Below the pieces are notes generated by a model. That model was not told where the DNA came from. It was given only the letters and a program-made list of their open reading frames with translations, and made no database searches. DNA of 29,480 nucleotides from Candidatus Calditenuaceae archaeon JGI OTU-1 (GTDB lineage Archaea > Thermoproteota > Nitrososphaeria_A > Caldarchaeales > Calditenuaceae), in assembly GCA_000494145.1 (NCBI GenBank), contig AWOE01000011.1:2011-31490 (forward strand). The letters run 5' to 3'. The position numbers were made by a program, and so were the translations under genes. Below are positions 15,512 through 17,009 of this stretch, piece after piece (position 1 is the stretch's first letter; every line of letters starts with the position of its first letter).

Positions 15512-16552
15512 GTGGATGAACGGATGATAACGGACCTGTATATTAGGAACTTTAAGTCAGTGAAGGATGTTAACCTGAAGTGTAGCAGAATAAATGTTAT
15601 CATCGGGGAACCTAATACAGGGAAGTCCAACATACTCGAGACTATCGCGCTGATGCATTTATTCGTCGATCGTTATAAAAAGTACACTAAATCGGATCTC
15701 TCATTCATTTTCAGAATTTCGAAATGGAACCAACTGTTCCCTTGGAGTGATTTGTCGCAAGCGATATCAGTAGAAGCGATTGTTGATGATATGCATATCA
15801 TCCGAGTGAAACTTCAGTATAATGAGTTTATTAAGTGGATCGACGTATTGTACGGTGACAATGAGATAACAGCTCTAAACCCTATCGAGCTCGACTATGA
15901 TCTTAATCCTGAAAAAGACGGCATCGTAAGGTTTGGATTTTATCGTTTCCGCATTATATCGAGATTCCCGTCCAGAGAGAGTAGATTCGTCGTTCCTCCT
16001 GATGCCCCTAATTTGCTAGAAGTCATCCGCGTTAAGGGGAGGGAATTGATAGTTGAGCTTAGTCGTCTATTTAGCAAGTATGGAATTGATTTAGTTATAG
16101 AGTATCCCCTAAAATTGATGAAAATACAGCAAACAATCTATGAAGAGGAGATTCCCATTGTAGCCAATTTACCGTACTCAATTCTCTCAGACTCGTTGAA
16201 AAGAATAGTCTTCAACCTTGCAATCGTACAGGGCAACGAGAAGATGGTCATTGCTCTCGAGGAACCCGAAGCTCACACATCTCCCTACTACGTCAAATAT
16301 CTGGCGGAGAAAATCGCTCGGGACGAAAAAGGCAATCAATACTTCATTTCAACACATAACCCCTACTTCCTCATTTCTCTTCTTGAAAAGGCTCCAAAAG
16401 AAGATGTTAACGTCTTTGTAACTTTCCTTGAGAATCATAAAACAAAGGTCAAGCTATTAACTGATGAGCAGAAGGAGGAAATCCTCGATATGTATTTGGA
16501 TGTCTTCTTCAACTTCGATAAATTCATTGAAGGGTTGAGCCAAGAGGTTTAG
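15512..16552 (+). CDS. Short ABC/SMC-head type ATPase (AAA_15/AAA_21, OLD/AbiL/PARIS-AriA-like class)
   Basis: The N-terminal IRNFKSV strand is present. Walker A is GEPNTGKSN (15605-15631). LSDSLKR (about 16184-16204) is signature-like. Walker B and D-loop are MVIALEEPEAHTSP (about 16244-16285). The H-loop is ISTHNPYF (about 16346-16369). ATG 15524 (MITDLYIRNF) is an alternative start. Confidence 0.8.
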   Translation: MDERMITDLYIRNFKSVKDVNLKCSRINVIIGEPNTGKSNILETIALMHLFVDRYKKYTKSDLSFIFRISKWNQLFPWSDLSQAISVEAIVDDMHIIRVKLQYNEFIKWIDVLYGDNEITALNPIELDYDLNPEKDGIVRFGFYRFRIISRFPSRESRFVVPPDAPNLLEVIRVKGRELIVELSRLFSKYGIDLVIEYPLKLMKIQQTIYEEEIPIVANLPYSILSDSLKRIVFNLAIVQGNEKMVIALEEPEAHTSPYYVKYLAEKIARDEKGNQYFISTHNPYFLISLLEKAPKEDVNVFVTFLENHKTKVKLLTDEQKEEILDMYLDVFFNFDKFIEGLSQEV

Positions 16553-16559
16553 AAGCAGA

Positions 16560-17009
16560 ATGGTCTACGATTACTATGTGGTAGAATGCAATAACGATGT
16601 GGCGTTCGTTAACGAACTCATGAACGGGAAGTACAAAGAAAAAATAATCCATGCGGGGAACAAGACGAATGTCTTAAAGACGCTTGAGAAACGGAGTCAA
16701 TGTGTGGGGTTAATTGACGAGGACCCCAGTAGCTCTCAACCACCGAAGCTGCGGGACATCCAGCTACAGGATGTGGGGAACGACATCAAGGTAGGCAAGT
16801 ATAAGGGCAACCTTATTGTGGTTTTATGTCCCAGACTCGAGGAATGGGTGGAAAAAGTTGTGAGAAACGCCGGAATTCAAAAAAACATCAAAGCGAAAGA
16901 CCTTGAAGACGAAAAGAGGTTAGTGGACGTCATCCAGAAACTAACGGCTTCAAACCCTGAACTAGAACCTATCCGACGGCTCCGCGACCTTCTCCTTAGG
17001 GGGCTTTGA
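16560..17009 (+). CDS. 149-aa protein with a minimal TOPRIM-like motif set (DUF4435/DUF4276-like?); partner of the ATPase
   Basis: YYVVECNNDVAFV places an acidic E9 at the end of a predicted strand (16584-16586). HAGNKTNVL follows. VGLIDEDP is a DxD-type motif (D53/E54/D55 from 16716). IVVLCPRLEEW follows. The order strand-E, helix, strand, helix, strand-DxD matches TOPRIM topology. The ATG is 7 nt after the ATPase stop, with GAGGT (16544-16548) upstream. The fold assignment is inference only. Confidence 0.55.
   Translation: MVYDYYVVECNNDVAFVNELMNGKYKEKIIHAGNKTNVLKTLEKRSQCVGLIDEDPSSSQPPKLRDIQLQDVGNDIKVGKYKGNLIVVLCPRLEEWVEKVVRNAGIQKNIKAKDLEDEKRLVDVIQKLTASNPELEPIRRLRDLLLRGL

Follow-up and report, generated by a model that had tools for sequence, protein, structure and literature searches.

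Does the short, compositionally foreign islet between the OsmC and pheS genes of a Calditenuaceae archaeon carry a defence-type system of its own? The stretch of DNA analysed here (the window) comprises 29,480 nucleotides (nt) of contig AWOE01000011.1 from Candidatus Calditenuaceae archaeon JGI OTU-1, and an earlier reading of its letters alone (the original prediction) had singled out two co-directional genes, 7 nt apart, as a module of a short ATP-binding cassette (ABC) ATPase (gene A) and a small Toprim-like protein (gene B). Both open reading frames were found where that reading had placed them, and they are real genes, because homologues of each number in the hundreds to thousands. The A-B pair is a real, widespread and unnamed family with an OLD/PARIS-like design; on balance it is best explained, by analogy with characterised systems, as a miniature split OLD-type enzyme engaged in genetic conflict, which may serve either virus or plasmid exclusion or the maintenance of the cassette itself. 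The features of the islet on which the argument draws are the following.

15400-17094, no strand: variable cassette, flanked on one side by the OsmC promoter region and on the other by pheS plus a conserved C/D-box small RNA (sRNA) gene
15467-15494, forward strand: AT-rich TATA-like stretch (catatataag ... tttata) 5' of gene A, as read from the sequence
15512-16552, forward strand: gene A, 346 amino acids (aa) from a GTG start; short ABC ATPase of the AAA_15/AAA_21 (OLD/GajA/AriA) class
15524, forward strand: alternative ATG start of gene A, which gives 342 aa and is the start point of homologues
15605-15628, forward strand: Walker A of gene A (G32-S39, including K38)
16259-16276, forward strand: Walker B of gene A with the catalytic acid (EEPEAH)
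16544-16548, forward strand: GAGGT, a ribosome-binding-like site of gene B within the final codons of gene A, as read from the sequence
16550-16552, forward strand: stop codon (TAG) of gene A, 7 nt ahead of the ATG of gene B
16560-17009, forward strand: gene B, 149-aa Toprim-like protein
16584-16586, forward strand: E9 of gene B
16587-16589, forward strand: C10 of gene B
16596-16598, forward strand: D13 of gene B
16650-16652, forward strand: H31 of gene B
16662-16664, forward strand: K35 of gene B
16716-16724, forward strand: D53-E54-D55 of gene B
16839-16841, forward strand: E94 of gene B
residues 112-147 of protein B, forward strand: C-terminal three-helix bundle

The islet stands out by its guanine-plus-cytosine (GC) content, which is 0.36-0.50 over approximately 15450-17000 against 0.59-0.68 on the flanks and 62-66% for the genome; over 15501-17000 it is 0.40-0.46 against 0.59-0.66 on either side, which confirms the low-GC islet of the original prediction. 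The GAGGT that had been assigned to the second gene is likewise present. The TATA-like stretch, flanked by a 5-bp inverted repeat (AGCAG/CTGCT), is presumed to be a cassette-borne promoter of gene A, and its region is not the same in the different cassette alleles at the OsmC/pheS site.

Protein A belongs to the OLD/GajA/AriA class of ABC ATPases, and its nucleotide-binding motifs are intact. All the motifs read in it beforehand (IRNFKSV, GEPNTGKS at residues 32-39, LSDSLKR, ALEEPEAH and STHN) are there, and their key residues are conserved rather than chance matches: K15, S16, G32, P34-S39, S226, P252, E253 and T281 are invariant among 56 relatives (38-93% identity), where G32 and P34-S39 belong to Walker A, S226 to the signature-like motif, P252 and E253 to the (E)EPE Walker B, and T281 to the H-loop. 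The Pfam families AAA_15 (55.7 bits, cut-off 32.1; expectation value (E) 8e-15) and AAA_21 (40 bits, cut-off 27; E 6e-10) both exceed their curated cut-offs. For the alignment-based AlphaFold2 model (predicted local distance difference test (pLDDT) 91), Foldseek ranks Thermus scotoductus OLD (6p74; E 2.7e-13) first among PDB structures and Gabija GajA (8sm3_A; 3.4e-13) second; Rad50, SMC heads and the PtuA ATPases of retron/Septu come next (E 1e-10 to 1e-13 overall). This ranking supports the OLD-class membership proposed at the outset.

The A family has 2482 matches at E<=1e-5. All 56 relatives match the PADLOC models AriA, AbiLi, HEC-01A, NsnB and ATPase-Toprim, and 55 of them match GajA, with weak scores (about 1e-17 to 1e-23) among which no model stands out. 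Protein A itself matches AriA at 2.5e-16 with a best stretch of residues 5-114 only, and one AbiLi model nearly over its full length (residues 3-319), the AbiLi matches of A and its relatives having E-values of 1e-12 to 4.5e-21. It does not reach the family level of MADS3 in NCBIfam (32 bits against a cut-off of 420). Since the models of defence ATPases match it weakly and about equally, protein A forms a short branch of its own among the OLD-like ABC ATPases, outside any named system.

Protein B is small, of alpha/beta type, and its invariant acidic residues follow one another as in Toprim domains. Its AlphaFold2 model (pLDDT 92; predicted template modelling score 0.86) has the order strand 1 (residues 5-8), helix 1, strand 2 (29-31), helix 2, strand 3 (48-53), a hairpin, strand 4 (84-89) and a helix (93-104), followed by three helices. 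This succession of strands and helices along the chain fits the Toprim fold, which is defined as a sheet of four parallel strands (order 2-1-3-4) between helices (PMC6755086). The motifs from which the Toprim-like character had first been proposed, VVE (E9), HAGNK and LIDED (D53/D55), are all present, where E9 sits directly after strand 5-8 and D53-x-D55 directly after strand 48-53. Conservation was counted over 172 relatives (165 non-gap sequences for E9 and D13), and the acidic residues are invariant or nearly so: E9 is found in 165/165, D13 in 161/165, D53 in 172/172, E54 in 163, D55 in 170/172 and E94 in 172/172, with P56 (166), P91 (172) and W96 (167) at similar levels. Toprim domains are defined by a glutamate after strand 1, a glycine after strand 2 and DxD after strand 3, and in OLD nucleases two second-metal ligands come in addition, an acid at +4 and, on the following helix, a glutamate (E404/E508 in Burkholderia (Bp) OLD; PMC6755086). 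Judged by sequence position, D13 and E94, the latter at the start of helix 93-104, would be the equivalents of these two ligands, and an alignment by eye brings four motifs of P2 Old (VEGKTE, DGKG, LADCD and DIEAV) into correspondence with four of B (VECNND, AGNK, IDEDP and RLEEW).

The search of the B model against 350,542 PDB chains with Foldseek ranks first the C-terminal nuclease region of Xanthomonas OLD (6njw; E 0.058), second PH0156 (2p62; E 0.074, with the highest probability, 0.60, and a template modelling (TM) score of 0.39 on the query length) and third a 306-residue chain of the PARIS complex (8ux9_A; E 0.2). PH0156 is presumably a structure of the DUF3226 family. The length of the PARIS chain fits the 35-kDa AriB described in PMC11464382. 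Among Pfam families, DUF3226 (PF11536) is the only one with any signal for B (E 0.066, from strand 1 to helix 2), and it gives any match in only 3/21 and 1/147 relatives. When the 147 relatives are compared with PADLOC, nine matches are obtained at E<=0.01, of which four are Toprim-type proteins (mad4 twice, at 1.4e-3; AbiLii, at 3e-4; and GajA); NCBIfam gives one faint match, MADS4. B itself has zero PADLOC matches, and no Pfam, NCBIfam, PADLOC or PHROG model is significant for B or the 147 relatives. Searches of B against PDB sequences (phmmer and two profile searches) returned only chance-level matches (a PCI-domain protein, E 0.03, and a de novo designed protein), and Foldseek against viral predicted structures gave no interpretable match. 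A Toprim-type fold is the best reading of B, supported rather than proven, since the weak structural and sequence signals combine with the invariant motif set. The claim of a Toprim-like B is accordingly carried by the motif order, the topology and the ranking of structural matches that are weak (E 0.058-0.2) and never significant; the contrary outcome that had been named for it, a non-Toprim fold with unconserved acids, is not what was found, as the model is a Toprim-like beta-alpha arrangement and the acids are invariant.

Several results weigh against the Toprim call and, with it, against an OLD-type enzyme. No match of B to a Toprim structure is significant (Foldseek E 0.058-0.2, TM 0.33-0.39, none below 1e-3), and CheY-like receivers come close behind the Toprim proteins in the list. 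The DUF3226 signal, at 13.4 bits, lies under its cut-off of 27. An hhalign comparison of the 147-sequence B profile with P2 Old gave nothing (probability 0.2). A homologue search seeded with the Toprim region of P2 Old yielded only 5 near-identical fragments, and phmmer with this region finds no other OLD structures. The Toprim glycine after strand 2 occurs in most of the 172 relatives but corresponds to no single invariant column, glycine being commonest at positions 33 (76/172) and 34 (80/172).

It is conceivable, if quite unlikely, that B is no nuclease at all; it would then be a small regulatory or adaptor domain, receiver-like or metal/phosphate-binding, modulating A, which would itself be functional, for example as a DNA-binding or clamping ATPase. 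The many CheY receivers with scores similar to those of the Toprim matches just above them would suit such a role, as would the example of RecR, a Toprim protein (listed as such in PMC6755086) that can be non-catalytic, and the size of B, which at only 149 aa is without the helical domain giving the catalytic lysine in OLD. However, OLD and RNase M5 use the invariant E, D(+4), DxD and E-on-helix as their two-metal ligands, whereas receivers have DD, D, T and K; the model contains no fifth beta-alpha unit; and the top-ranked structures are Toprim-type proteins linked to ABC ATPases.

Apart from the Toprim set, three residues of B are 92-96% conserved outside the classical motifs, namely C10 beside the Toprim glutamate (163 of 172), H31 after strand 2 (165) and, four residues further on, K35 (159); they may serve in substrate binding, as general acid/base or as a metal site.

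A and B form a tightly coupled operon, which archaea and bacteria inherit and exchange as one unit. The exhaustive profile search gave 1302 clusters of B at 50% identity, 821 of them at E<=1e-10, and the best-scoring 150 listed representatives are nearly all about 150 aa long. Loci of B homologues were collected from metagenome contigs, from one genome per species (53 loci, of which 24 are archaeal and 29 bacterial as judged by record title; as the genome scan used a single peptide pattern, they sample the family with a bias) and from one provirus. In essentially every locus where the contig shows it, approximately 50 in number, the gene directly upstream, on the same strand, is an A homologue, in answer to the synteny check that had been proposed. 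The two genes overlap by 4 nt in 22/50 loci, which suggests translational coupling, and nearly all others lie within 20 nt; median sizes are 327 aa for A and 155 aa for B. The pairwise distances of A and B are correlated (r=0.77), a value reached by 0/2000 Mantel permutations. Four loci (L054 and L057-L059) hold fragments of the pair only, which suggests decay. The system had been described as archaeal, and the pair does occur in many archaeal lineages, but with 29/53 of the genome matches in bacteria it is not archaea-specific.

Related contigs were recovered by a scan seeded with the neighbouring OsmC protein, and the OsmC/pheS site was found in them in the following states.

L062: site with an identical cassette, A and B 100% identical to the window
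L063, 4642-5000: empty site, OsmC-PheS gap of 360 nt
L067, 4757-5000: empty site, OsmC-PheS gap of 245 nt
L064, L065 and L066: site filled with divergent A-B cassettes (A 62-73%, B 56-63%; OsmC/PheS/PheT 78-90%)
window 17133-17187, forward strand: candidate C/D-box sRNA (C box ATGATGA at 17138-17144, D box CTGA at 17182-17185, GGCC/GGCC terminal stem)

In the two contigs with an empty site the flanking proteins are 81-90% identical to those of the window. Between cassette alleles at this site the identity is 56-73%, against 84-90% for flanking proteins. Alignment of empty and occupied sites delimits a variable segment of approximately 15400-17094: homology with the window ends at approximately 15386-15400, in the conserved OsmC promoter region that forms the left boundary, and returns at approximately 17091-17118, the right boundary being the conserved C/D-box sRNA gene. 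Only short, chance-level repeats were found around the islet when target-site duplications, att sites and direct or inverted repeats were sought. In close relatives the intergenic site is either empty or occupied by one of at least three A-B alleles, each with its own upstream region; the site shows hotspot-like behaviour, and the cassette is a presence/absence/replacement polymorphism in the lineage of the window. Across the family the GC content of the cassette is lower than that of its surroundings in 42/44 loci, by 7.5 points on average. Integrated Geoglobus ahangari pleomorphic virus 1 carries one copy of the pair (gp15/gp16; L061, BK065157.1, 5020-7174), where it is bracketed by the winged-helix regulators gp14 and gp17, with a RelE/ParE toxin (gp21, 9275-9535) 2.5 kb off. 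This arrangement suggests an accessory conflict region in an archaeal pleolipovirus; the description of the virus does not discuss gp15/gp16. Another copy adjoins a type IIG restriction-modification gene and an integrase. The cassette is mobile, as follows from the empty sites, the diverged alleles at one site, the foreign GC content, the patchy distribution and the provirus copy, and the low-GC islet, originally taken as a sign of mobile cargo, was a true one.

Two further observations concern the edges of this site. The candidate sRNA matches Rfam sR1 at 34 bits (E 3.4e-7), under the gathering score of 45, and sR14 at 28 bits; across six related contigs it hardly varies, against an identity of only 81-93% for their flanking proteins. 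Next to the most divergent allele (L064, 2338-3047), the tblastn matches of PheS span only residues 1-24 and 287-510, and the N-terminal domain of this pheS may have been deleted or rearranged.

The mobility of the cassette bears directly on the proposal that the pair performs housekeeping genome maintenance, as an analogue of RecF (an ABC ATPase) with RecR (a Toprim protein) or of the cell-cycle OLD protein Cran1. Protein A does match RecF among PDB sequences (E 3e-6) and TIGR00611 weakly, Rad50 and SMC heads are near it structurally, an Lhr-like helicase adjoins the pair in 6 loci and a Y-family polymerase in 3, and Cran1 supplies a precedent (PMC12796447). Nevertheless, close relatives have no cassette at the site or very divergent alleles there, and the family is patchy across phyla, with foreign GC content and one provirus copy. 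The RecF equivalog model gives A 28.5 bits against a cut-off of 172, and B has neither the helix-hairpin-helix nor the Cys4 zinc finger of RecR, contains two cysteines only and finds no RecR match in Pfam or NCBIfam. A housekeeping role is hard to reconcile with sites that lack the cassette, with alleles that replace one another and with foreign GC content, and is considered very unlikely.

A comparison with the known systems places the pair near several of them and inside none. Pairs of an ABC ATPase with a Toprim protein (OLD, Gabija, PARIS, AbiL, MADS3-4) are established defence systems (PMC11464382; PMC10568477). PARIS is similar in that its ATPase, of the AAA_15 class, and its Toprim-type effector are encoded in this order by neighbouring but separate genes, and in residing on mobile elements; its 306-residue chain (8ux9) is among the top three matches of B, and 56/56 A members match AriA. 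However, A has about 330 aa where AriA has about 55 kDa, and B about 150 aa where AriB has 35 kDa (PMC11464382); the A-AriA match, which covers ATPase motifs at the N and C termini, reaches only 1e-16 to 1e-23, and neither B nor its 147 relatives match AriB/DUF4435. Moreover, PARIS and the split (class 4) OLD proteins are reported to be restricted to bacteria (PMC12796447), whereas the A-B family is found in archaea and bacteria. The OLD proteins of classes 1-2 (P2 Old, Thermus OLD, GajA) provide the best structural matches of both A (6p74, 8sm3_A) and B (6njw), and share the (D/E)EPE Walker B, the STH(N/S) H-loop and, judged by sequence position, the Toprim ligand pattern E-x3-(E/D), DxD and E-on-helix, but their domains are fused in a polypeptide of 500-650 aa, while A and B are separate genes in all of the approximately 50 loci. 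B furthermore has no counterpart of the helical domain with the catalytic lysine of OLD, and the OLD-type Toprim model PF20469 matches neither B nor its 147 relatives. Unlike Gabija, the pair has no GajB-type helicase partner, UvrD not being among the top neighbour families (45 loci).

AbiL (AbiLi and AbiLii) and Mad3-Mad4 of MADS (an AAA ATPase and DUF4276) are also split ATPase/Toprim pairs, from which A-B differs in that the matches on the side of B are far under family level (1-2/147 members), and MADS is in addition a multi-gene, methylation-linked system, of which another model (mad2) is matched in 1/150 neighbour ORFs (open reading frames) of A-B. DUF3226/PH0156, the only Pfam signal and the second-best PDB match of B, differs in that PH0156 has 241 aa and the score of B lies under the cut-off; as PH0156 has no known function, this link adds little on mechanism. 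Taken at family level, A-B does not belong to OLD, PARIS, Gabija, AbiL/MADS3-4, DUF3226 or RecF/RecR; it resembles PARIS, AbiL and MADS3-4 in its split design, and its parts are most like those of OLD and GajA. The ATPase-plus-Toprim logic of OLD/Gabija, PARIS and AbiL, proposed at first sight together with much smaller proteins, is supported, the sizes relative to AriA and AriB included. The PADLOC check that had been suggested gave no match for B and only weak, about equal matches of A to named defence ATPases, and B is unmatched in Pfam, NCBIfam and PHROG as well; the system is thus undescribed in the libraries and literature examined, outside which an earlier mention is possible.

By analogy with OLD, Gabija and PARIS, from which both the mechanism and the defence function itself are inferred, B would be a divalent-metal nuclease with two-metal catalysis, where E9 and D53/D55 would hold metal A, and metal B would be bound by D13 together with E94 from the helix that follows strand 4, on the model of E400/D455/D457 and E404/E508 in Burkholderia OLD. 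Protein A may dimerise or oligomerise on ATP and bind B, probably through the C-terminal helical bundle of B, and this binding would keep the nuclease silent. A cue from the invader or a change in the nucleotide pool would then release or activate B, which may nick DNA or cleave tRNA/RNA and so stop the invader or the infected cell; the outcome could be invader exclusion, abortive infection or post-segregational killing. A bolder version, which is put forward tentatively and as the less probable claim, is that A-B constitutes a sixth, unnamed kind of OLD-type immune system, would be the smallest ABC-ATPase-gated Toprim nuclease (about 330 + 150 aa) and the first split OLD-type system in archaea, and may have spread horizontally across at least 20 archaeal and bacterial lineages with alleles swapped at chromosomal hotspots.

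The surroundings of the pair were taken as up to two neighbours per side in 45 loci (150 ORFs), which fall into 192 Pfam families, none of them dominant. A conserved third component or a consistent defence island was looked for and rejected, since no family dominates and most neighbours are of housekeeping type. On the question, raised by the original prediction, of a location in defence islands, no consistent one was accordingly found. Further results stand on the same side of the balance as the weak Toprim matches, this time with regard to a role in conflict. Strong matches to defence models occur in only about 10/150 neighbours (type I restriction twice, type IIG, ShosA, PsyrA, mad2, PDC-S27 and Lhr-like helicases), most others being housekeeping; no third gene is conserved among the 150 neighbours of the 45 loci; no relative was found in 2.9 million IMG/VR viral contigs; tblastn of B against PLSDB plasmids found none either; and the archaeal OLD-family protein Cran1 acts in the cell cycle, not in defence (PMC12796447).

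Insertion at mostly housekeeping sites rather than in defence islands is also what a selfish addiction module would show. Such a module, similar to a toxin-antitoxin (TA) pair and with no anti-virus role, would have B as a toxic nuclease and A as its ATP-dependent neutraliser, and the pair would persist because its loss kills the cell. The self-contained two-gene form with its tight coupling, the presence/absence and allele replacement at one site, the GC content under that of the host, the RelE/ParE toxin near the provirus copy and the Pfam text for AAA_21 ('putative AbiEii toxin, Type IV TA system') are all compatible with it. On the other hand, the molecular parts are those of proven defence systems, in which toxicity and defence are two faces of abortive infection, and no copy was found on PLSDB plasmids, where addiction modules are common. 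Addiction without any anti-virus role is regarded as unlikely, and it differs from the favoured split OLD-type enzyme in its biology, not in its mechanism.

The combination of an ABC ATPase with a Toprim nuclease is among the most successful designs of prokaryotic immunity (OLD, Gabija, retron effectors, PARIS, AbiL and MADS), and an understanding of how infection is perceived by the ATPase, and of how the nuclease is held under its control, is only beginning to emerge, from assemblies that are large and complicated. The A-B pair reduces this design to about 480 residues in two proteins and would be a convenient minimal system for structure and mechanism; if protection against viruses is true, it would be a minimal model of the way in which an ABC ATPase detects infection and sets a nuclease free. 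For archaea it fills a gap as well, as tests of defence systems there have been few and OLD-type systems of the split kind were thought absent. A family of at least 1302 clusters at 50% identity without a Pfam, NCBIfam, PADLOC or PHROGs model is an annotation gap in its own right, and a profile of B would let pipelines label thousands of 'hypothetical' genes.

Among the neighbours, a large Lhr-like helicase gene adjoins the pair in 6 of about 45 loci (4 methanogen/anaerobic methanotroph (ANME)-related archaea and 2 bacteria), mostly convergent with B.

L013, 8487-11477: Lhr-like helicase gene
L018, 2331-4340: Lhr-like helicase gene
L023, 8481-11353: Lhr-like helicase gene
L024, 8501-10169: Lhr-like helicase gene
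L030, 7749-9602: Lhr-like helicase gene
L039, 4812-6938: Lhr-like helicase gene

These genes match DEAD and DEAD_assoc in Pfam and BrxHI/SngC/DpdJ-type models in PADLOC, and their adjacency could reflect either shared ancestry or a loose functional link. Elsewhere in the window, a tRNA gene of 90 nt is located at 407-496 on the reverse strand (Rfam tRNA, 48 bits), for which ARAGORN leaves the anticodon unassigned, giving a four-base 'cgga' at position 37; the gene probably encodes an archaeal tRNA with an intron.

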